Shown piece after piece: positions 1,841 to 25,997 of a stretch of 64,000 bases of DNA; the first letter of the stretch is position 1, and the number at the start of each line of letters is the position of its first letter. Location of the stretch: the NCBI RefSeq assembly GCF_054482525.1, contig NZ_CM137006.1. One strand, given 5' to 3'. The notes beneath the pieces were generated by a model, which saw only the letters and a program-made list of their open reading frames with translations, did no database searches and had not been told where the DNA came from. A program made the translations under genes and the position numbers.

Positions 1841-2951
1841 CTTACTGAAAAAACACCACAATCTTGTTAAACATCGTCGGATTGGACTGATTACGTTGCA
1901 CTTTCACCACATATTCCAGCTTATCTATTTGGCTTATCACCTACTCCAGACGCTGGTCATCCTTGACCAGTAGCCAGATATGGCTTTTGTCGCAGTCCTG
2001 AATCGGCAGGCAGAGAATGTCTTCAACGTTAAGAGCGCGACGGGCAAAAGCCCACAAAGGTGAGTCATTACACCCGGATGGTAAACAGGCACTTCCTTGT
2101 TGTAGAAGCCGTTATATTGTCCATAATGTCTGGGTTTTTAATGCATACTGGGTAACAACCGGACGAATCTTCGAATATCACTGGCGCTGCCAGCCGGTTT
2201 GAATTCATCTCACAACCCTGCATAGAGCGAATCTCCTGCCTGCACGTCACTCCACTCCATGGTATCAACTTCACACTCTTTATCTGCGGCTAGTTTCAGC
2301 CACCAGATAAGCATCGACTATGAAAGATGAGCCATGACAACATAACGTTGGTAACGCTCTGACGCCTTAATGGAAGATGCCTGCCACCATAGGGAATGTA
2401 AACGACTGAAGTGTGGCCTTTAATGCCGTGAACGGCTCATGGTCTCCTGGCACGGTTGCCGCCCCAACCTGTAACAACATTCCACAGTACAATGTCTGTC
2501 AGAGTCAGAGCCTCCCATGCTTGTTGTAGTAACTCTACCAGTTACGAACATCCTTCCTCAAAATTGTTGTCATATCTCGCATGGAAGAAAAGATCCTGGC
2601 TAAGGAGCAACACACAACGTATTGCGGAACTTGCATATTTTTCCTGTAACTAGTGTATTACCACATATGGTAATAGCTACCTGTGTGGTTTCGCTGGATA
2701 GCAAGGGGATTTATTCGCAAGTAAAATGCCTGATAAAATACACGAATCTAGTAATCATCAATATTTACTCTGGTCGAATGACGCGTGAAGTGGACTGCCA
2801 GCAGACGCGGCCAGTGGTCCACCGCCTGCTGAACAAAACGCCAGATATCTCCCGGCTCTGAAAGTAACGCTTCGGTTATTTGCACGGAATACTACTCCTT
2901 CAGACTCTGTTAAGTTTTGTTTGTTAAACCGGTGCAGACCTGCAGGAAAGC

Positions 2952-4204
2952 ATGCCAGCACCGGCACTGTACGATATAAACATCCGGTACCGGGGATACG
3001 AATGGAATGACGAATACGCCAGAAAAGGGATAACAACCTTCCTCATAATGGTGAAATCATTCGCTATCGGTTACACGGTACGCGATGTCGCCAAAGGCAG
3101 CTGGATCGACGAATCCACGGTCACGCTACCGAAAGCGCCGCCGCTTAACACCCTGCCTCGGGCGACCAAAGTGCCGGAGCCGCAGCCGCCGCAGGAAGAT
3201 TACACCTTTGAAGGTTACCGCAACGCCGACGGCAGCGTGGGCACCAAAAACCTGTTGGGTATTACCACCAGCGTGCACTGCATGGCAGACGTTGAGGACT
3301 ACGTGGTTAAAATTATCGAACGCGACCTGCTGCCGAAATACCTGAGCATCGACGGCGTGGTCGACTTGAACCACCTCTACGGCTGTGGCGTAGCGATTAA
3401 TGTACCGGCCGCCGTGGTGCCAATTCGCACCATCCATAATATTGCGCTGAACCCAAACTTCGGTGGCGAAGTGATGGTGGTGGGCATGCAGTGCGGTGGC
3501 AGCGACGCGTTCTCCGGCGTTACCACTAACCCCGCGCTGTCGGCTACGACTCTGACCTGCTGGTGCGCTGCGGCGCAACGGTGATGTTCTCCGAAGTCAC
3601 TGAAGTACGCGACGCCATTCATCTGTTAACGCCACGCGCCATCAATGAAGAAGTGGGCAGGCGTCTGCTCGAAGAGATGGCCTGATACGATAACTATCCC
3701 GATATGGGCAAAACCGACCGCAGCGCCAACCCTTCGCCGGGCAACAAAAAGGGCGGCCTCGCCAACGTGGTAAAGAAAGCACTCGGCTCCATTGCTAAAT
3801 CGGGTAAAACCGCAATTGTTGAAGTGCTGTCGCCCGGTCAACACCCGACTAAACGCGGATTAATTTACGCCGCGACGCCAGCCAGCGATTTTGTCTGTGG
3901 CACGCAACAGGTGGCTTCGGGTATCACCGTGCAAGTGTTTACGACCGGCCGTGGTACGCCGTACGGCCTGATGGAGGTACCCGTCATTAAAATGGCGACC
4001 CGCACCGGGCTGGCGAACCACTGGTTTGATTTAATGGATATTAACGCAGGCACTATCGCTACCGGCGAAGAAACCATTGAAGAGGTGGGCTGGAAGTTGT
4101 TCCACTTTATTCTCGACGTCGCCAGCGGGAAGAAGAAAACCCTCTCGGATCAATGGGGATTGCATAACCAACTGGCAGTGTTTAACCCGGCACCGGTGGC
4201 CTGA
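2952..4204 (+). pseudogene. UxaA/GarD-family sugar-acid dehydratase (altronate/galactarate dehydratase-like), frameshifted and 5'-truncated
   Basis: Two ORF-track pieces (2952..3584, 3704..4204) and an intervening segment in a third frame together read as one dehydratase homolog; the second piece ends ...[25 protein letters not shown], typical of this family; N-terminal about 50 aa absent. Confidence 0.6.
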
Positions 4205-4266: not shown

Positions 4267-5091
4267 TCACAGCGAAGACGCGAGCTCCCCGACCAGAATC
4301 ACTTCAACCCCAGCCTTTCGCAAGCCTTCCAGACTATCCGCAGGAATGCCTTCATCAACAATGATCATGTCGATACGTTGAGTATCAATGATCTTATGTA
4401 AACTGGAACGATTGAACTTACTGGAATCGGTGACCACGATGATCCGTTCCGCAACTTCGCACATCCGGCGGTTTAAACGGGCTTCATCTTCATTATGCGT
4501 GCTGACGCCGCGCTCCAGATCGATCGCATCTACACCAAGAAACAGCATATCGAAGTGGTAATTTTGCAGCGATTGCTCAGCCTGATCGCCGTAAAAAGAT
4601 TGCGACTGACGGCGCAAATGCCCGCCGGTCATCAGCAGCTCAACGCCTTCCGCTTCCAGCAACGCATTAGCCACGTTCATACCGTTGGTCATCGCAATTA
4701 CGTCAGTGTGCTTGCGCATCAGACGAGCAATCTCAAAAGTGGTGGTCCCGGAATCGAGGAGCACCCGATGACCTGGCTGAATCAACTCAACGGCAGCTTT
4801 CGCAACGCTGCGTTTCATCGCGGTGTTCAGTGCGCTTTTGTCTTCCACTGATGGCTCGACTGACGGCGTCGTGCTATCGCAGATCAACGCGCCACCATAG
4901 GCACGCACAGCGATCCCCTGCTTTTCCAGAAACGCCAGATCGTTGCGGATCGTCACAGTAGATACGCCATACAATGCCGACAGATCGTTAACCTGCACAC
5001 TCCCTTGCTGTCGCAGACGCTGAATGATCTGTTCTCGTCGCTCGCTGGTGCCTGTCACTCGCTTCTCACCTGAAGCGTCGGTATTACTCAT
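4267..5091 (-). CDS. DeoR-family transcriptional regulator
   Basis: 274-aa ORF; N-terminal HTH ([26 protein letters not shown]) and DeoR C-terminal effector domain; divergent from the downstream PTS operon. Confidence 0.7.
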
Positions 5092-5409
5092 AGTAAGTCC
5101 TTTCGTAAAACTTTCGTTTCATTTCGTTTTGCCTATTAACGCCTTTCTATTAAGCAAATGCAAGCCCACCTTGCCCATTGGCGCAAGCTACTCTCGTTTC
5201 ACTGACTTTCATTATGTTTCTTTTGTGAATCAGATCAGAAAACTATTATCTTTCGTTTTATTTTTATCTCACCATGACGCAGTATCAACTGAAACAAAAC
5301 GAAAGATTAATATCGCAGCAATCTGAACTGGAGAGGAAAGTGAAACATCTGACAGAAATGGTGAGGCAGCACAAAGCGGGCAAAACAAATGGAATTTATG
5401 CCGTTTGTT

Positions 5410-16063: not shown

Positions 16064-16950
16064 TGCCACTGCTGGATAAGCTGCGTGAGCAGTACGGGGT
16101 CGGACCGCTATGCAGCGAACTGCATATTGCCCCGTCAACGTATTACCACTGTCAGCAACAGCGACATCATCCGGATAAACGCAGTGCCCGTGCGCAGCGC
16201 GATGACTGGCTGAAGAAAGAGATACAGCGCGTATACGATGAAAATCATCAGGTGTACGGTGTGCGTAAAGTCTGGCGTCAGTTGTTACGGGAAGGTATCA
16301 GAGTGGCCAGATGCACTGTGGCACGTCTCATGGCGGTTATGGGACTTGCCGGTGTTCTCCGGGGTAAAAAGGTCCGTACGACCATCAGCCGGAAAGCCGT
16401 TGCCGCAGGCGACCGCGTAAACCGTCAGTTCGTGGCAGAACGACCTGACCAGCTGTGGGTGGCTGATTTTACTTACGTCAGCACATGGCGGGGCTTCGTC
16501 TATGTGGCGTTCATCATTGATGTGTTTGCCGGATACATCGTGGGGTGGCGGGTCTCATCGTCTATGGAAACGACATTCGTGCTGGATGCTCTGGAGCAGG
16601 CGTTATGGGCCCGTCAACCGTCCGGCACAGTCCATCACAGTGATAAAGGTTCTCAGTATGTATCGCTGGCCTACACACAGCGGCTTAAGGAAGCCGGATT
16701 ACTGGCATCAACAGGAAGTACTGGTGACTCGTATGACAACGCGATGGCGGAGAGCATCAATGGCCTTTACAAAGCGGAGGTAATACACCGTAAGAGCTGG
16801 AAAAACCGGACAGAAGTGGAGCTGGCCACACTCACGTGGGTGGACTGGTATAACAATCGACGATTGCTGGAAAGGCTGGGCCATATCCCACCGGCAGAAG
16901 CAGAAAAAGCTTATTATGCTTCCATCGGAAACGATGATCTGGCAGCCTGA
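16060..16950 (+). CDS. IS629 transposase OrfB (DDE integrase domain)
   Basis: 296-aa ORF overlapping orfA; DDE transposase core; normally expressed as an OrfAB fusion by frameshifting. Confidence 0.85.
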
Positions 16951-16992
16951 GTTCACAGATAAAACACTCTCCAGGAAACCCGGGGCGGTTCA

Positions 16993-18649
16993 GATCGTAT
17001 CCCTGTCCCCCAACATTCAGCCAAGCCTTCACGAGCCTTCCTTTCGAGATATAGACTTCTTTGTCGACTGTTTCGACCTGAAACTGAAAGCCATCGTCTT
17101 CCGGGTATTGACGAGCGTGATTGATAGCATGTCGGTAAGGGTCAAGCTCAGTATCATCAAATGTTGGAATATCCTTGCCAGCAGGTTCGGCTTGTTTCAG
17201 GGCATCAAAGAATTCTGTTGCAGAAGTGAATTTTGCGGCAACGGCATCCCGTAATACAGATGAATACCAGTGCTGGCTGTTTAGCATGTTGTCCTGTACT
17301 TTCTCCAGACTCTTTGGCGACATGCGCATACCGCTAAATAAGTGCCAGGCGACAAGGCCCAGAGTATGAACATCTTGCTGAAAAGGCGTAAGCTCGCCCT
17401 TATCAAGCATGTCTTTTACGTGGACTGCACCTACGGATAAAAGCTTACGGTAATCGCCAACCGTTCCGGCTGGCTGGTGGTAAGCCGAAATAAAGTTCGA
17501 AAGAGCAACTTCTTTTGAAGGTGAAATCCACAGACTGTGATCGGCGACATCCCTGTGCGCAATTTTCATCTCATGGAGATCACTAAACTTTGCAATGAGC
17601 AGTTTCACCACATTCAAGCGGTCCATATCAGAAAAGTTCTTACCATATTTTCCGATAAACTCATTAAACCGGACATGACCCGGCGGAACTTCGTAGACTT
17701 CGCTATACTCGGCCGTCACCTCGTCTTTCTGAAAACTCGTCAAAGACCTGAGACAGTGGTTATACAGGTCACGATTCTGGTGATTGATGTGCTGTAACAC
17801 TTCGCGCTCACGTGAAACAATCTGAGCTCGTCCTTCCGGGGTATTCGCTTTCGTTCCCGTTATATTTCTAAAATTCCATACTCTGAGTAGCGCTTCGCTG
17901 TTCGTTGATATCTCAGATTTTGCCAGATATTCTCGATACACCTTTTTAGGATGTTCGAAAATCATATCATTAGCTTCATAGCCATTAACTCTCAAGGCTT
18001 TTGGTGCCGTCTGAGGCCCTAGGAACAAATCATCGAAAAGATGGAAATCCTTGTTAAGAACCTTGGTAGCTGGGTGCGGTTTGAAATAGTTATTGAAGCT
18101 CCCGCGATCGGCAAACTTCAGGAAATCTTTTAACGAGATCGTATGGCGCCGTTGTTCCTCCGGCAGCGCGCTGAAATCTGCATTGCCGGTCATCACAACA
18201 AAAAAATGAACAATCGGGATATAGCCTTTGTTCGTAAAACGGTCTACCAGACGCTTGAGTTTTTTGTCCAGCATGAATTTTTTGCTACGAGTCACGCTTA
18301 CTGGCGAGCGCCCCATGTTCTTATCACCTTTAAACCAAGTATCTCCGCGTGCGGTTACAGGCTGATGGTTCCAGTCTTTCAGTTCAACAATGATCACGTT
18401 GCAGTGTGTTACAATAACTAAATCGAATTCCCCCTCTTTTTTTGCCTCAACAAATCGAAAACCTGCATAACCTTTCCAAGGGAACATTTCATTGCCGATA
18501 AAACCATAGCTTTTTAGCTGCTCACTAATTGAACCGCTACGGAAAGGCTTGTCAGGCTTAGATACGTTGACTGAAAAAGCAGCTTTTATTTTCTCGATAG
18601 CCAATACTTCCTGTTCTTGTAAGCCACCATCCCACATTTCTACTTCCAA
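16993..18649 (-). CDS. 5' portion of IS629-split gene: NERD nuclease-related domain plus protein-kinase-like domain
   Basis: TTG start at 18649 preceded by AAGGAG; NERD-like signature EFDLVIVTHCNVIIVELKDW; kinase-like HRD at KIAHRDVADHSLWI and DVHTLGLVAWHLFSG. The annotated ORF runs on into IS629 (to 16832), so its last about 50 codons are IS-derived. Confidence 0.75.
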
Positions 18650-19311
18650 CGGTGTTCTCCTTAAATTTCAGTAAAAATAAGGTCATTTATTCTGGTCAAT
18701 ATGGCAGGTTTCGATGTTTATAGTTCTGAATACTATGGTGTTTTACACGTTCATTCTGGTTATTATACGTAGAAAAGAATTTATCGGGCAACGCCGAGAT
18801 GACGCGGCCCCGTTAAACCGTGTAGTGGTAGATGATGAGATCAGATACAGGGATCAACTGACGGTGAGCGCAGTCCCCACATTTTATCCGGAGTTTACCG
18901 CTATTCCCGGCTGCCATTCGTTAGCACAGGCCCGCAAGTACCCTGATTTGCCGCTGGTTTTGCTTTCCCATCGAAGGGCCCATACATCATCACGCCCGCG
19001 AAACAGTCGACAAAATAACGCAACTTTCTCATCCGTGGATAATACGGAAACGCACTGCACAGGACTCTGCGGTTTACGTCACCATTCAATCCCATAAGCT
19101 TCAAGTTATGTTTGCCCTCAGTGCAGCTAATTCATCACTGTCAGATTTATGAACCATATTCGTTACCTGTATCCGATCCACTGAGGCACCACGGCAGAAA
19201 TTCGGGTCCCCTACACTGATGACAAAGCGCCCCGCCCTCTTCTGCCTATTAACTCAAGCACCTCCCAACAACTTACAGAAACTTAATTCTAATACCTAAT
19301 ACAACTGTAAT

Positions 19312-19875
19312 TCAGTTATGTCGTGGTCGGCCCCGGTTGCTTTTTTCGGGAAGCCTGCTACGGCCCAGAATAATACCGTGTTCTTTCTGATCCTGTTTAG
19401 CCAGGTAGCTAAGGGCGTAACGTAAACCGTCTACCGCAGACTTATCACTATAGTGAATCACGTGATCGATACGCACCGGGTATTTGTCTTTAGTACTGCA
19501 CAGGTGAAAATAACCCTCCCCTTCCGTGATCCGACTCCAGATATCTCCCAGTTGCCTGGATATCCGATAAAATTTCTTGTGACGTTGCCCATCCAAGTAG
19601 CCGATAAAATGAATATGAAGTCCCTTGTTTGACGTATATTCCATTACCCAGTAATATCCCGCCAGCATCGTTTGGGTTTCACTAAGTAAGCGGTGCATTT
19701 CAATACACATACTGTGCCTACAGGAATGACCAAAACTGGGCGTGTCTTTCCTGTAGGCAAAATCAATTCTGAAAGGTAACAGTTTAGAAAAACGTTGAAA
19801 CAGACCTTCCATGTGTTCATTCACGTCTTTCAGAATCATGAAGTCCATTTCGTAATTGGGATTAGCATTATACAT
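19312..19875 (-). CDS. island-associated protein (YfjJ-like / inovirus Gp2-type family, by recollection)
   Basis: 187-aa ORF; character of CP4-57-type island backbone proteins; family assignment from memory only. Confidence 0.45.
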   Translation of the reverse strand: MYNANPNYEMDFMILKDVNEHMEGLFQRFSKLLPFRIDFAYRKDTPSFGHSCRHSMCIEMHRLLSETQTMLAGYYWVMEYTSNKGLHIHFIGYLDGQRHKKFYRISRQLGDIWSRITEGEGYFHLCSTKDKYPVRIDHVIHYSDKSAVDGLRYALSYLAKQDQKEHGIILGRSRLPEKSNRGRPRHN

Positions 19876-20695
19876 TTTATAGTCCTTACTTTATAAAAGT
19901 TACAGGAAGGTGGAATTACATAAATACTGAGAGTACAGAAACGCCGTACCGCGGCATTAATAAACGAGGTAACCAGCAGCACAGACAACCTGATAAAACT
20001 GTTTCGTATTACCTCATTACTCCAAAGAGGTAATATTTCAGAGTACAGTAAGACTCACTTAAACTGAGGACCAGTACGAATTACAATGGTAAAAACACAC
20101 CTCATAGAATTGAGTTTAAGGAAGTACCATTCAATCACTTACAGGAAGTAATCTGACATTCACAAAAGCCAGTATCGGGTAGCCACAGGCAACACCGCTA
20201 TTAATACTTCTGTACCATTAAGTAAAAACAGCGACCCAGCTTAAGGCCTCTACAGATATTTAACTTCACCATAAAAATGATGGTATACAGACCATACCCC
20301 ACACACCATAAGAATATTATTTCATACAGGAAAGATTATATTTTTTCATACCTATAAACTGTAACAGAGCCATAACATACTCTAATAGTGTTCCGGTACG
20401 TAACCAGTGTTAAGTGCGTACAAGACAACATAACAGATCACATAACTTCCACTAATAATACTAATTAACCTAAATTATTTATTGAACACGAAAACAATGA
20501 AGGCCCCACCTCACCTCAGACTAAAGCCGACAATATCCTGAGCAACACTCTATCCAATAGTAAATAGTGGTTACACCAGTTATATTTACTGACTGACCTG
20601 TACCAGAGTTTTCTAATACAACGCTGACATGGTAAAGACATTAGTCTCCTCCGCAAGTAGCAGAGGAGACTATATGTACTCAACGATTAAGTCGT

Positions 20696-22147
20696 TCAGA
20701 GGTCAAAGTTAGGTGCGACACACAACGTTTTTCCCTCAATAACCGGTACAACTCTGTTTTGTTCATACAGTAAATCCAGTAACCAGTTGATTTTATCCTT
20801 TTTCCGGAAACGGTTCGGACCACGCTGTAAAATGTCATTTTTTTTCATACAGAGGATCCCCTTCTCAATACAATAGCTTTTTATCCAGTTGAAAAGTTCA
20901 AGCTCCTCTGGAATGAGTCGCACAGGTACGGTCAGGGCAGAGTTGTCAAAAGTTAACGGATTAGACAACCGCACATACTCATTACCGTACCATATTGCTA
21001 ATTCTCTCGCCATTTCTGCAGTGTAAGGGGAAATCTCCCCCTCTTCACCGCTCGAATGGTAAATAAGTCCTGCCAATCTTGCCATATACTCTGCATTTTT
21101 AGCAGCATATTCCCGGCAATGTCTTAAAGGCCCCAATCCCCCCAGCTTCGATTCCACATCATTGTAATAATCCGTCCAGATTCTGGCAGCCTGAGGAGAA
21201 AAGTGAAGGCAACGTCGTTCACCACTCATCGCCAGACTTTCATCAATAAGCTCATTGATCCTCTCTTCAAACAAATCCTGATACTGTGATGAATAATTAT
21301 CTCCGGTTATTATCCTTGTCCCCTGCGTTGATGTTGGTTGACACATCAAAAACCTTGCATGATGTCCTGACGTTTTCACAATTTCTTTTTTTCGCGTACA
21401 AAAACCTTTGTGGTAAACATCAGGCTGAATCATCACCGATATCGTCAGTCTTGGCTCCTTCAAATTAATTCCGGGAGATGATTTCCTGTCGATGAAAAGA
21501 GAACCTCCATCCCACAAAGTGTTAATAATTCCCAGTTTACTCATGGCCCGGCTGTCAAAAATTACCCCCCCTTCACTGGATACAAGAGCAAAAGAGCGAT
21601 TGCTATCGGAGTAATATTTTAACATTCCCTCTATCGTTGTCTCATTAAAAATTGTTCGACGTATCTGCGGCGGAACAGGAGGTTTATTCAGATGCGTTTC
21701 AAGCTCTGATTCTGTTGCCTTGTAATCTTTACCGGCACGAATCTCTTTATGAAATTTTGATTCCAGCGCTTTTTGTTTTTGCTCCCATATTTCCTTTTCT
21801 GTACTGTAATTCTCAACCAGTTTCGCGTATTCTTCCGCCAGGGCTTCATCCCTGAGATAAAATGCTTTCATAAACACTTTATCCACGGTCGTTTTCCTTT
21901 CACCGGAATCAGCCAGAATCAGAGAGTAAAGATTAACAGGCCCATGTAAATTTCCAGGTCTGCATACGTCAATCTGATTCTGACAGGCAATTGAGATCGC
22001 TGTTAATGCGGATGTTGCCACCATAGCCAAAGGTGCCTGTGTATTTTTTTGAGTTTCAATTATTGCATTTCTCACCAGCGGTGGTAGTGCATATATCGGA
22101 TAAGGATTTTCTGGTGCAAGTAAGCACATAAAAGCCTCTCTTTTCAT
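20696..22147 (-). CDS. DUF3987-type (YfjI-like) island protein
   Basis: 483-aa ORF; resembles the large P-loop-less YfjI/DUF3987 proteins found beside AlpA in P4/CP4-57-like islands. Confidence 0.55.
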   Translation of the reverse strand: MKREAFMCLLAPENPYPIYALPPLVRNAIIETQKNTQAPLAMVATSALTAISIACQNQIDVCRPGNLHGPVNLYSLILADSGERKTTVDKVFMKAFYLRDEALAEEYAKLVENYSTEKEIWEQKQKALESKFHKEIRAGKDYKATESELETHLNKPPVPPQIRRTIFNETTIEGMLKYYSDSNRSFALVSSEGGVIFDSRAMSKLGIINTLWDGGSLFIDRKSSPGINLKEPRLTISVMIQPDVYHKGFCTRKKEIVKTSGHHARFLMCQPTSTQGTRIITGDNYSSQYQDLFEERINELIDESLAMSGERRCLHFSPQAARIWTDYYNDVESKLGGLGPLRHCREYAAKNAEYMARLAGLIYHSSGEEGEISPYTAEMARELAIWYGNEYVRLSNPLTFDNSALTVPVRLIPEELELFNWIKSYCIEKGILCMKKNDILQRGPNRFRKKDKINWLLDLLYEQNRVVPVIEGKTLCVAPNFDL

Positions 22148-22347
22148 TAATGGGTTAGTAAAATAGCAGCAAATCCCGCTACAATAGCGAAAATAGCTGC
22201 TATTCAGACCTGATGCTCTGAGAAATACAGAGCATTTGTAGATCTGATGTTTAATAAACCGATAAGGTTAATTCAGTGAAGACTGTATTATTCACCACGA
22301 AATATCATTCATATTTCTCATTCTTAATACCTCCAGAAATTATTTCA

Positions 22348-22680
22348 CTAATACCTTTCCCCCGGTCTTTTCCCTTTCTCCAGAACCATAGTGTAAATAT
22401 TAACGGCCCCACGTAAATTTCCGGGACTGCATACGTCAACCTGATTCTGACAGGCAATTGACATCGCTGTTAATACTGACATTGCAACCAGAGTCAGAGG
22501 TACTTGTTTATTGTATTGAACTTTAATTATTGCATTCCCTATCATTGATGGTCATGCATATACTGAATACGGCATATCCGGTTTGATGTAAGGCATAAAT
22601 GCTTCCTTTTTCGTAATACGTTTCGGTTATAGCAGCAATTACCGCTACAATAGCGACAATAGCTGCTCTTTCAACAATGA
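22348..22680 (-). pseudogene. diverged tandem duplicate of the 5' end and promoter of the DUF3987 gene
   Basis: 22380-22670 aligns at roughly 80 percent identity with 21900-22200; the 65-aa ORF 22348..22545 repeats the N-terminus of the 483-aa protein (VPLTLVAMSVLTAMSIACQNQVDVCSPGNL versus APLAMVATSALTAISIACQNQIDVCRPGNL). Confidence 0.5.
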
Positions 22681-22771
22681 ATGCTGGAAATTCTGTTTAT
22701 CAATTAAACTTCTGGCTAAATTGTTCTTATGCTTCTTTTTCCTCCTGAGGTGATCACGTGATGACAAAAAC

Positions 22772-23080
22772 TTATCTGCTCATGGTCATATCTGAAGAAA
22801 GCGTATGTCTCACTTCGTCATTAACACCTTTGACTGCTGATCTGGCAGGTACAGTATGTAAAGTAAGCCATTCGTCAATAGCTGATGAACGCCAGCCCAC
22901 AGAACCACTACCAAGACGTACCGGCCTGGGGAAGGTTGCATCGTAGTATTTCGATAACGGATTCATTTTTTCGTAAATTGTCGAACGAGATATACCTAAC
23001 AATTGGCTCAGTTCAGGCATCCGTAAGATGCGTGAAGGAGTCCTGCAGTGTCCGGATTGATCTGGCATTTTATCCCCCAT
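22772..23080 (-). CDS. alpA: AlpA-family transcriptional regulator / excisionase-like
   Basis: ORF 22772..23152; the region RILRMPELSQLLGISRSTIYEKMNPLSKYYDATFPRPVRLGSGSVGWRSSAIDEWL matches the AlpA HTH family; start codon uncertain. Confidence 0.6.
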   Translation of the reverse strand: MGDKMPDQSGHCRTPSRILRMPELSQLLGISRSTIYEKMNPLSKYYDATFPRPVRLGSGSVGWRSSAIDEWLTLHTVPARSAVKGVNDEVRHTLSSDMTMSR

Positions 23081-23229
23081 AGTGTGGTGAACTGTCGTTA
23101 CAGTTTGTATTCCCCGGGTAAATTTGTCTGCGTAAAAAAATGGGTTGAGCAAAAAGACAATAAATAATTAAAAATCAATATGATAGAAAACGACAGCATT
23201 AGTGTTATTTTACTTTTCCCTTATCGCTG

Positions 23230-24179: not shown

Positions 24180-25997
24180 ATGTATAATTTTATCACTATA
24201 ATGTATGATGTCTTTTCATGTTTTGGTGTTCTGGCTAAAAACCAGAATAGCCGTGACATCCGAAATATTAAAAATTTTTCCTCACATCAACATTCACTGG
24301 GCGACATGTTTGATGAATTAATAAACATTATTGATAAAGAACAAGTATTGAGTAAAGAACAACGAAAAGTTATATTTAGGAGATATGAAGATCTCTATGT
24401 TAAGCTAATGCACTATTCTGTTTTTACAGACAAAACACATCAAATAATAAAACAAAAATATTTTAATGACATTGTACCAATGATTCTCGCACTCGACATC
24501 AGGAACACATATCGCCCGGATAATGAGATGGCATTTTACTATCATATTCATTCTTTTCTCACTCAGATACCGGATAATGAGGATGATATATATCATGCTG
24601 CAAGGACATATCTGCGAAATTACGTTAAGTTATGTTTATCCGGATACACGCCAGCGAATGCGCATTTCAAAGATATCTTTGATGGCGTATATGAATTCAT
24701 TCGTAATATTCGCAAAAACAGTACACCAGGAAAAACAAAACTTATCGCAACTATCAACACATGCAAAGAAACCTGTAAACATCTGCTTTATTTAAGTAAT
24801 GAAGACAAGGAAAAAATAATTTCTGACTTAGATAAAGTTCAGGTTGCATGTTATTATCTCACTATATTACTGGCTTTCGAAAGACGAACTTCATTAACAA
24901 GCACCCTGGCAACTTTATATAAAATGCTGATAAGCGAAAGAGAAGTTTCAGAATATGAATGCCAGTTATTATATTTAACCAACCCAATAGATGTAATGAA
25001 TATACTGAACAAATACATATATTACTTTCCTAATGAGAACTCACCATTTTATACACTGAAAATTGACAGTGCATTATCGTGGGATGCCATTGACGCAATA
25101 CGAGACTATAGTATTTCTGATATTTATCTTTATCCTGAACAAAAAACAATAAATTGTGTCGTTGAGATTGAAAACATTGTCTTTGGCGGTTACATTTATA
25201 CATTGAACAACGGCGTCACATTACAAAACATAGAAAACTCTTTAAAAGATTCTTCATGCCATTATGTCTTAAATGGCTATACAGAATTTGTTAACTGTTT
25301 GAGACAACTTACTTCAGGAAAGACTGAAAGTGTTCATCGCACCATCAATAAACTGAACTATGAGAAATTACCTTTTGGATTTATCATTGCCGCGTTTGCT
25401 ATACTAAAGATAGCATTTAAAATAAAATTCAGTAAAAATCATGTAAATATCCGAGCATTATTAAATGACATCAATTATTTTATGACTTATCAGGGCGAGT
25501 CCATTAACCTTATTTCACTGGATCACGAATACCCAGAGTCCTGTCTTCAAAATGACACAAACACATATTTATTAGGAAGAGTAATATTTCTGTATAACTC
25601 AATGATTTATAAGTTCATAAACTGTCAGGAACATGAAACCAATAACATTCACTCAGCTATGATAAATAACCTATTACAGGAAGTTGATATAGCCCTTGGT
25701 AAAATAAATGACATTATAGACAGCAGAAACATATCAACCCCCCATGAACTGGCAAATATTCTTACCCGCGAAAAAATACTTACAACACGGGAAAAAAAAG
25801 GAAACCTGATAAGCCTGTTTGATGGATTCACTTTATTCCATTGTGTTGGAATGATAACCTTTCTTATCCATTATCTCAGAACACCTGAAGAAAAAGTTGA
25901 AAATATATTTATGTTATATGGTGCAGATAAAAACAATAAACTACGCAGAAGACTGATTTATGACGCACTAGGAATAATTCAGTCTCAGCAGGAGTGA
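24180..25997 (+). CDS. hypothetical protein (605 aa), strongly AT-rich orphan gene
   Basis: ATG at 24180 preceded by AAAGGAG (24167-24173); no motif recognised; composition far more AT-rich than the backbone. Confidence 0.6.
   Translation: MYNFITIMYDVFSCFGVLAKNQNSRDIRNIKNFSSHQHSLGDMFDELINIIDKEQVLSKEQRKVIFRRYEDLYVKLMHYSVFTDKTHQIIKQKYFNDIVPMILALDIRNTYRPDNEMAFYYHIHSFLTQIPDNEDDIYHAARTYLRNYVKLCLSGYTPANAHFKDIFDGVYEFIRNIRKNSTPGKTKLIATINTCKETCKHLLYLSNEDKEKIISDLDKVQVACYYLTILLAFERRTSLTSTLATLYKMLISEREVSEYECQLLYLTNPIDVMNILNKYIYYFPNENSPFYTLKIDSALSWDAIDAIRDYSISDIYLYPEQKTINCVVEIENIVFGGYIYTLNNGVTLQNIENSLKDSSCHYVLNGYTEFVNCLRQLTSGKTESVHRTINKLNYEKLPFGFIIAAFAILKIAFKIKFSKNHVNIRALLNDINYFMTYQGESINLISLDHEYPESCLQNDTNTYLLGRVIFLYNSMIYKFINCQEHETNNIHSAMINNLLQEVDIALGKINDIIDSRNISTPHELANILTREKILTTREKKGNLISLFDGFTLFHCVGMITFLIHYLRTPEEKVENIFMLYGADKNNKLRRRLIYDALGIIQSQQE

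Follow-up and report, generated by a model that had tools for sequence, protein, structure and literature searches.

Introduction

The intergenic region of the filamentous Ff phages is densely structured, carrying a packaging signal together with the hairpins of the (-) and (+) origins, and its nick site lies in a hairpin loop. Some other origins used by HUH nucleases, such as that of phiX174, work without a hairpin, and Rep promoters and origins overlap in geminiviruses as well as in some plasmids with rolling-circle replication (RCR). Here, we describe how a spacer of around 820 bp compares with such systems. It lies in a 64,000-nt stretch of DNA from contig NZ_CM137006.1 (RefSeq assembly GCF_054482525.1; hereafter called the window), between a yfjI-type gene and a gene of the Gp2/YagK/YfjJ-like family whose product resembles HUH Rep initiators (hereafter called the Rep-like gene), and it contains a 22-nt sequence, the box, that accompanies this gene family across many genera of Enterobacterales.

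Previous work has touched on several parts of such a locus. In a 2025 preprint, tRNA-integrating defence islands with an integrase, an AlpA-like excisionase and HUH Rep-like initiators were presented as putative phage satellites, and no origin is mentioned there (PMC12458937). The AlpA protein of Pseudomonas aeruginosa is a Q-like antiterminator with a binding element between the -35 and -10 positions (PMC7969949), and the yagL-yagK spacer of E. coli K-12 is listed as a site of sigma-70 holoenzyme (TTTAGA-16-TATAAT) with H-NS (PMC3946193). The searchable literature on yfjI, yfjJ and yagK yielded nothing concerning the spacer tract. A first-pass annotation of the window had singled out the spacer as a long, AT-rich tract free of open reading frames (ORFs) and had proposed that it might encode a non-coding RNA, be a decayed gene or be an H-NS-bound regulatory tract. 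All coordinates given below are positions in the window unless they follow the name of another locus; the genes and the elements of the spacer lie on the minus strand, which we call the gene-sense strand.

A 22-nt box linked to the Rep-like gene family

A profile of Escherichia spacers recovered the box from distant loci as a short block, AATTAAGGTTAATTAGTATTAT, for which the copy in the window reads AATTTAGG... The box is laid out as a palindrome, AATTwA-GG-TTAATT, followed by a hexamer that resembles a -10 element (TAGTAT or TATTAT). We found it upstream of the Rep-like gene, always in the orientation of the gene, in around 30 loci from, among others, Escherichia, Citrobacter, Buttiauxella, Edaphovirga, Budvicia, Brenneria, Lelliottia, Serratia, Yersinia, Enterobacter, Cedecea and Erwinia. 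Across 23 loci that had been ascertained through the protein, it holds 1.77 bits of information per position compared with 0.3 in either flank. A second subfamily has a related variant of the box, CATTTGGGTTTTTAGTATAAT, the yagK and yfjJ genes of K-12 have looser versions (TAGGTATTATATAAT and TAGGTAATAT, respectively), and the box keeps at its 3' end, whatever the subfamily, a -10-like hexamer of the form T-A-x-x-x-T (TATTAT, TATAAT, TAATAT or TAGTAT).

An exact-pattern scan of metagenomes returned 86 matches to the box, 65 of which have a Rep-like ORF downstream in the same orientation, and all but around two of the other 21 lie on contigs that do not extend far enough for their leader class. 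An island of Enterobacter wuhouensis (L050) has tandem Rep-like paralogues at 2944-3522 and 4726-5298, each with its own box variant around 150-200 nt upstream. Because the linkage in metagenomes is essentially exclusive and both of these paralogues carry a box, we conclude that the box is a cis element of the Gp2/YagK/YfjJ-like family and is linked essentially only to it. Its family-wide occurrence and constant position ahead of the Rep-like gene support, in more specific form, the regulatory part of the third option offered by the first-pass annotation, that of a tract possibly bound by H-NS.

A scan of viral contigs gave 17 matches to the box, namely one true E. coli island, two near-identical contigs resembling jumbo phages, and otherwise chance hits in A+T-rich sequence. 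The two jumbo-phage-like contigs from IMG/VR carry the full 22-mer (the AATTAAGGTTAATTGG TATTAT variant) at 10732-10753 of L067 (241 kb) and 6461-6482 of L072 (237 kb), in intergenic DNA on the strand opposite to the flanking genes and with no Rep-like gene nearby, which could be chance or a phage sharing the box site. Two further resemblances were set aside: The likeness of the box to phage-type promoters (T7, SP6 and K11) is a coincidence with the register off by 6 nt, and the likeness of TATTATTAGTGG to the core of the f1 origin is confined to the clade of the window and no feature of the family.

A spacer composed of two unrelated non-coding pieces

The first-pass annotation was right about the basic properties of the spacer. 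It contains no ORF of at least 60 aa between 19876 and 20695, and these boundaries are exact; the longest ORF is one of 55 aa with a TTG start (20516-20683), and the longest stop-free run in six frames is 59 codons, compared with 74 +/- 17 in shuffled sequence of the same composition. Because this run matches random sequence of equal composition, the spacer is plain non-coding DNA whose lack of ORFs is no anomaly in itself. It is also AT-rich as claimed, with 63% A+T compared with 52% for the window (G+C 37% and 48%, respectively). The plus strand is composed of 37.3% A, 25.4% T, 21.8% C and 15.5% G, and the strand of the flanking genes is therefore rich in T and G. Besides this composition, the features expected of an H-NS tract comprise a single 8/10 match to TCGATAAATT at 20485-20476, abutting the box. 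The spacer has no DnaA box even when 1 mismatch is allowed, no match to the consensus for integration host factor (IHF) and one copy of GATC without any cluster, and by these marks it does not look like a theta-type origin of the oriC or iteron-plasmid kind.

The tract is found in 1,562 of 5,426 complete E. coli genomes (around 29%) at 84-100% identity and is 100% identical in O157:H7, where it is part of the OI-43/48 (SpLE1) island, and in many other strains. No gene is annotated inside it among the 60 matches listed of these 1,562 genomes, two of which name YfjI merely through a match overlapping the yfjI end. Comparison of the variants revealed that the tract is composite. The ~220 nt beside yfjI show 90-97% identity in all variants that have yfjI next to them, and in enteropathogenic E. 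coli (EPEC) E2348/69 (L007), which has a different upstream gene, these distal ~220 nt are not homologous. The proximal ~600 nt are kept in EPEC E2348/69 and in strain YD786, with the box and the leader persisting beside other upstream genes (L007, L063). Since each part persists with its own gene, the spacer consists of two unrelated non-coding pieces set end to end, i.e., the 3' region of yfjI and the 5' region of the Rep-like gene.

We also gathered 43 loci from other genera of Enterobacterales through the downstream Rep-like protein. Most of them have an ORF-free gap before the gp2-like gene, commonly of 300-630 bp and up to 1340 bp, and additional contigs have gaps of 1,096 and 1,285 bp at this position. 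Because most of these loci in many genera share such a gap, a long untranslated upstream region is, as judged from these genomes, a trait of the Rep-like gene family and no local accident. An exception is the cryptic prophage CP4-57 of K-12, where the gap between yfjI and yfjJ is 152 bp without the 22-nt box or a long leader; this locus does not contain the tract and was rejected as a reference. Collections of phage genomes gave no match to the tract, and a plasmid collection gave nine records, several of them chromosome-sized; the one that we examined (H76, L065) has the same module as the window.

On the distal side, the first-pass annotation had noted a hairpin with an 8-bp stem just past the stop of the DUF3987 gene, i.e., yfjI. 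The hairpin exists and begins 24 nt past the yfjI stop, but its arms are really 13 nt long. Folded as minus-strand RNA, 13 of 13 positions pair with one G-U (free energy, dG, of -29.5 kcal/mol, z -7.0), compared with dG -23.7 and z -5.3 on the plus strand. In UTAK-6, all three substitutions preserve the minus-strand pairing via G-U, and in clone D i14 one substitution disrupts an outer pair. The tail that follows, AUGUCUUUAC, has 5 U in 8 positions with interruptions and passes a lax rule for terminators only. Because this tail is merely moderately U-rich, we call the hairpin terminator-like, short of a textbook intrinsic terminator, and predict that this terminator-like element forms the 3' end of an alpA-yfjI transcript. 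Between hairpin and box, a motif scan of the distal segment detected no recognisable element beyond the H-NS nucleation match mentioned above, and the fold of a local hairpin (20480-20540) does not reach significance (z -0.8).

A long leader under weak constraint

The distance from the box to the ATG is around 120-220 nt in most genera. To the first in-frame start codon, it is around 590-810 nt in the Escherichia clade of the window, with leaders of 588-792 nt among E. coli variants, and around 925-1,160 nt in the clade of L053. Just past the box, the window has two tandem 12-nt direct repeats that may be protein-binding repeats. The L053/L048 clade, whose Rep-like protein is 63% identical to that of the window, has 6-8 strict 13-nt tandem repeats TGTAAnTnnAnCn starting around 18 nt past the box (1562-1665 in L053 and ~4017-4100 in L048, with leaders of ~1 kb), and these look like an iteron or operator array. 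Direct repeats are missing in many relatives with short leaders.

Most of the leader evolves near the synonymous rate. Its 5' half has a mean pairwise identity of 77% where it can be aligned, below that of 4-fold-degenerate sites of the adjacent gene, and its 3' ~400 nt are 87% identical within Escherichia compared with 85% at these sites. Since identity is near or below that of 4-fold sites and indels abound, constraint on most of the leader can at best be weak. A hexamer, CCTGTA or YCCTGTA, was considered as a universal leader motif and dropped; it is enriched and strand-specific overall, yet absent from many leaders.

The end of the leader carries a more telling element in other genera. In most of them, a hairpin sequesters the Shine-Dalgarno sequence, and it is significant (z < -2) in 26 of 34 distinct sequences with stems that vary in compensating fashion (AUCCUUUG/CAAAGGAU, UUCCUCUG/CAGAGGAA and CCAUGAA/UUCAUGG). 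Because these stems differ and yet compensate, there is good evidence from sequence comparison that the region acts as mRNA in the relatives that have this hairpin.

The box as a probable promoter or possible origin

We consider it somewhat more probable than not that the box is a promoter/operator followed by a long, largely unconstrained leader, which would also be the most economical reading of the locus. The hairpin in the first ~220 nt of the spacer would then end or stabilise the alpA-yfjI transcript, and the remaining ~600 nt would be the 5' control region of the Rep-like gene. The box would provide the promoter core, comprising TATTAT as the -10-like hexamer (or TAGTAT, which overlaps it) and, beyond ~6 variable nt, a purine, while the AT-rich palindrome AATTAA-GG-TTAATT that overlaps this core would be the site of a sequence-specific protein. 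Candidates for this role are the Rep-like protein with its RGRPR tail, the genetically linked AlpA-family protein, or H-NS. From a start near 20448, the transcript would have a leader of 575 nt ahead of the start codon at 19875, and most of this leader would be filler, given its indels and the lack of a conserved ORF or a convincing global RNA structure. Because no -35 is conserved, the promoter would have to be weak or factor-dependent, and a factor-dependent promoter is what the preserved T-A-x-x-x-T, the missing -35 and the sigma-70 holoenzyme site in the yagL-yagK spacer of K-12 together suggest. We infer promoter activity, start site and the identity of the binding protein from such features of the sequence.

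Several observations speak against a promoter. Neither a conserved -35 hexamer 16-18 nt upstream nor an extended -10 TG at -15/-14 was found, and a simple promoter scan left the box on the gene strand unflagged. The 16 invariant nt upstream of the -10 are unusual for a plain promoter, and they fit a nick or recognition site at least equally well. The Shine-Dalgarno hairpin that argues for mRNA in the relatives is missing from the clade of the window (dG -4.5, z -0.3), and the leader hairpin is so weak in the window that a scheme of attenuation or antitermination would find no support here.

The strongest competitor is possible though clearly less probable, namely that the HUH Rep-like protein recognises and nicks the box as its double-strand origin, which would make the spacer the place where a satellite-like integrative element begins to replicate. 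Once the element is excised, this protein would nick the gene-sense strand at or beside TAGTATTAT with the repeats as its binding sites, and YfjI and, in intact islands, a PrimPol-helicase would drive rolling-circle replication. Two marks of a rolling-circle origin are in place, a cognate HUH initiator with intact motifs alongside and a short site that is conserved in the family and specifically linked to it. All HUH catalytic motifs are kept across the family in an HUH-Rep fold, and because both are preserved the protein should need a specific DNA target; the box is the sole non-coding sequence near the gene that is conserved family-wide, and its linkage to the gene is essentially exclusive. 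An invariant short site with variable adjacent repeats (6-8 repeats of 13 nt in L053/L048 and two of 12 nt in the window) follows the pattern of RCR origins, and the neighbourhood of helicase-like, Rep-like and PrimPol-helicase genes is that of a replication module. The core of the box also resembles the nonamers TAGTATTAC and TAATATTAC of CRESS viruses (circular Rep-encoding single-stranded DNA viruses), with G and A variants both occurring, which we take to be a lead only. Islands of this kind have been described as satellite-like mobile genetic elements with AlpA-like excisionases and HUH Rep-like initiators (PMC12458937).

On the other hand, the putative nick site has no stable hairpin and no more than a palindrome of 6 bp, all of them A/T, around a spacer of 2 nt, inverted repeats flanking the box are not conserved, and the window lacks an iteron array. 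A large hairpin like that of a single-strand origin is likewise missing; folded as single-stranded DNA (ssDNA), the spacer has a z of -3.1 that is owed largely to the yfjI hairpin. Replication may also be defunct in the window, where the PrimPol-helicase is a remnant and the island is damaged by insertion sequences (IS), and nicking by the Rep-like family is not reported in the searchable literature. The origin and promoter readings overlap, and both could hold together.

A bolder form of the origin reading strikes us as doubtful, a little more so than the origin itself: Chromosomal replicons of the rolling-circle type, forming a widespread, undescribed family on the P4-integrase islands of Enterobacterales, might have the box as their nick site. 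With similar doubt, we suggest that such replicons might consist of a minimal HUH Rep (YagK/YfjJ), an origin directly upstream and AlpA, with a helicase and a PrimPol-helicase in intact ones. It is equally tentative that replication or ssDNA output after excision might make them phage-satellite-like vehicles of defence islands.

Antitermination of the AlpA or Q type appears improbable. AlpA would bind the palindrome between the -35 and -10 positions, load onto RNA polymerase and read through terminators in the leader, and the conserved part of the box indeed lies at exactly that position relative to TATTAT. The tight linkage of an AlpA-family gene would fit as well, as would two terminator-like sites flagged in the leader on the gene strand and a hairpin with 3 covarying pairs. 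However, the box is unlike the Pseudomonas element GGGACGN5GGTA (PMC7969949), the relatives with short leaders of 120-220 nt lack a hairpin followed by a U-run, and, with a z of +0.5, the leader hairpin of the window lacks significance. This mechanism would need self-activation in most genera, where the box precedes alpA within one operon.

A stand-alone non-coding RNA gene, either structured or base-pairing, is very improbable. There would be space for a transcript of 225 nt in the window, or a longer one, from the box to the hairpin with U-run at ~20222-20256, and the gene-sense strand is rich in G+U. We examined covariation among 13 Escherichia variants with RNAalifold and by counting pairs, which yielded a consensus fold with 96.8% of cells paired and many G-U-preserving changes (45 extra pair types compared with 11-26 in slid controls). 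Nevertheless, the fold on the gene-sense strand is no better than shuffles (z -0.36), the covariation term is -1.58, and double changes occur at 5 of 97 pairs compared with 3.7 in shuffles, mainly in one hairpin. The body of the putative RNA would be the most variable and indel-rich part of the leader, and sequence similarity of the tract is limited to Escherichia. The Rfam comparison that had been suggested, run permissively with Rfam 15 on both strands of 18500-22500, returned chance-level matches only (best E 0.41-7, far below gathering scores), such as BsrC at E 2.6 without base pairs and miRNA models. With Rfam, fold energy and covariation all weak or nil, the non-coding RNA proposed at first found no support as an independent structured RNA. 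The small RNA Esr41 of OI-43 was ruled out since it sits elsewhere in the island, between z1181 and z1182. The spacer is nonetheless probably transcribed, as a 5' leader.

That a protein gene has decayed here, for which gap length alone would speak, can be dismissed: The suggested comparison with homologous islands found no intact or partial gene in the tract among the 60 listed matches, the 43 loci and the metagenome loci examined (no translated protein-database search of the tract was made), the six frames are closed as in random sequence, each of six candidate small ORFs is broken in relatives in a conservation test, the variants are set apart by many indels of lengths not divisible by three, and the gap is an ancestral property of the Rep-like gene family.

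The Rep-like protein and its island

The Rep-like protein has weak Pfam matches to REP_ORF2-G2P (E 3e-4) and YagK_YfjJ_C (E 0.01). When 25 homologues with identities as low as 35% were aligned, they revealed HxH, YxxxYxxK (YALSYLAK) and R-x-D motifs, the last of them invariant, as well as an invariant C-terminal RGRPR. In a comparison with known proteins, the values are 7.9 for SIRV1 ORF119 Rep, 7.5 and 7.3 for the NS1 nuclease domains of parvovirus B19 and MVM, respectively, 6.5 for AAV Rep and 6.3 for Helraiser; searching PDB sequences with a profile of the family gave no significant match. The motifs show an HUH two-tyrosine nuclease similar to rolling-circle Reps, with an RGRPR tail that resembles an AT-hook, and judging from these motifs, which are kept across the family, the gene is catalytically intact. 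YfjI matches Pfam DUF3987 (E 3e-84) and PHROG 2373 'DNA helicase' (E 1e-62) and is annotated as 'YfjI family protein' in RefSeq. Neither the Rep-like protein nor YfjI matches a defence family in PADLOC.

On the minus strand, the island runs from the integrase over an AlpA-family helix-turn-helix gene, a truncated YfjI fragment, yfjI and the 820-bp gap to the Rep-like gene, which is followed by the remnant of a PrimPol-helicase gene and then Mokosh-like cargo (Table 1). The remnant covers residues 24-118 at 82% identity (E 3e-28) of an intact 786-aa protein, an AEP (TOTE-type) PrimPol-SF2 helicase whose gene comes next after the Rep-like gene in L004, L001 and L065. The cut-off remnant is followed by a 605-aa NERD/kinase ORF (16832-18649) that matches the first third of Mokosh MkoA (PADLOC E 5e-208), and the cargo seems to have entered here through an exchange.

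In nearly all loci outside Escherichia, the Rep-like gene is directly followed, in the same orientation, by an AlpA-family gene (in L010-L050 at +50 to +160 nt from the end of the Rep-like match), whereas the window has alpA upstream. We found no description of this gene pair in the searchable literature. The order of box, leader, Rep-like gene and alpA, usual outside Escherichia, is probably ancestral. The upstream neighbour in L010-L050 is usually a divergent gene of 250-400 aa without a Pfam match.

Further features stand out around yfjI. The truncated N-terminal YfjI fragment between the AlpA-like gene and yfjI (22366-22611, minus strand) corresponds to residues 2-84 at 57% identity, and at the equivalent place in other strains RefSeq annotates small ORFs or pseudogenes as 'DUF3987 domain-containing'. 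The yfjI operon contains a second, largely non-coding gap of ~620 bp (22148-22771), and a near-perfect hairpin, AUAGCAGCUAUUUUCGCUA...UAGCGGGAUUUGCUGCUAU, lies at 22163-22203 on the minus strand just ahead of the yfjI start, with a chance match to an Rfam miRNA model only. Between an IS1 remnant and the integrase, a plus-strand ORF of 605 aa with 28-34% G+C (24180-25997) has no match in Pfam, NCBIfam or PADLOC and is found at the same place in O157:H7 and other strains as 'hypothetical protein'.

Table 1. Features of the spacer and the neighbouring genes in the window
Feature	Position	Strand	Remarks
AlpA-family helix-turn-helix gene	22772-23152	-	upstream of yfjI
yfjI-type gene (DUF3987; phage-helicase-like)	20696-22147	-	3' end bounds the spacer
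Spacer	19876-20695		between yfjI stop and Gp2/YfjJ-like start codon
13-bp hairpin, terminator-like	20642-20672	-	arms 20642-20654 and 20660-20672, 13 nt each, loop 5 nt
Distal segment	20477-20641	-	goes with yfjI, not with the Rep-like gene
22-nt box, AATT(A/T)AGGTTAATTAGTATTAT, AATTTAGGTTAATTAGTATTAT	20455-20476	-	reads 20476-20455
Two tandem 12-nt direct repeats, GTTATGTGATCT / GTTATGTTGTCT	20423-20446	-	just past the box
Leader, 5' half	20267-20454	-	hypervariable and indel-rich among E. coli variants
Leader, 3' half	19876-20266	-	alignable, with short invariant blocks
Hairpin and U-run	~20222-20256	-	3 covarying pairs; in the window dG -9.1, z +0.5
Hairpin	20007-20035	-	z -2.6 (20000-20045)
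Shine-Dalgarno AAGGA	19883-19887	-	ahead of the Rep-like start
Gp2/YagK/YfjJ-like (Rep-like) gene, 187 aa	19312-19875	-	start codon at 19875
PrimPol-helicase remnant	18822-19105	-	tblastn with the intact 786-aa L004 protein

Discussion

A 22-nt box tied to the YagK/YfjJ family of HUH-Rep-like proteins across Enterobacterales is apparently undescribed and more interesting than a modest gain in annotation. It offers a handle on the function of the YagK/YfjJ "y-genes" as well as on the question of whether, and from where, the tRNA-integrating defence islands with AlpA and Rep-like genes replicate autonomously (PMC12458937). If the box is a nick site, the long-unexplained yagK and yfjJ genes of the K-12 cryptic prophages would obtain a function and a testable DNA substrate. 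If it is a promoter only, the result would be ordinary annotation with an unusually long, mostly unconstrained 5' leader.

Among known systems, the satellite modules of Staphylococcus aureus pathogenicity islands (SaPIs), other phage-inducible chromosomal islands (PICIs) and P4-type elements, in which pri or rep is followed by ori, share with the island of the window a set of integrase, AlpA, helicase-like and initiator genes with an AT-rich, ORF-free tract, and this set likewise sits in a tRNA-linked island. They differ in that the initiator here is an HUH nuclease rather than a SaPI-type helicase Rep or the P4 alpha protein, and in that the window lacks DnaA boxes, clusters of GATC and an AT-rich core flanked by iterons. 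The sites of lambda Q and P. aeruginosa AlpA resemble the box in the position of a conserved element relative to a -10-like hexamer and, for AlpA, in the linkage of a gene of this family. Unlike at these sites, the binding sequence is unrelated, the leader of the window has no convincing terminator, and no pause element was identified.

The gene A protein of phiX174 with its 30-bp origin and the double-strand origins of RCR plasmids (such as pMV158 with its nick locus and tandem direct repeats) are matched by the two-tyrosine YxxxYxxK motif, by a short, invariant and AT-rich site, and by adjacent direct repeats in some members of the family. Here, however, the sequence is unrelated, the window has two short repeats, the element is chromosomal and integrative, and the nick site is putative. 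As in the intergenic region upstream of Ff phage gene II, an ORF-free tract of several hundred bases with a T-rich sense strand stands right upstream of an HUH initiator gene; Pfam ties the Rep-like family to G2P, and a cis site of the initiator would be expected within the tract. The spacer differs from the Ff region in having no significant global structure or hairpin at the box, and the protein has 187 aa, not ~410. The yagK and yfjJ genes of K-12, in CP4-6 and CP4-57, respectively, are paralogous to the Rep-like gene, and yagK shares with it a spacer, here of 271 bp, with a box-like GGATAGGTATTATATAATGG and CCTGTA repeats.

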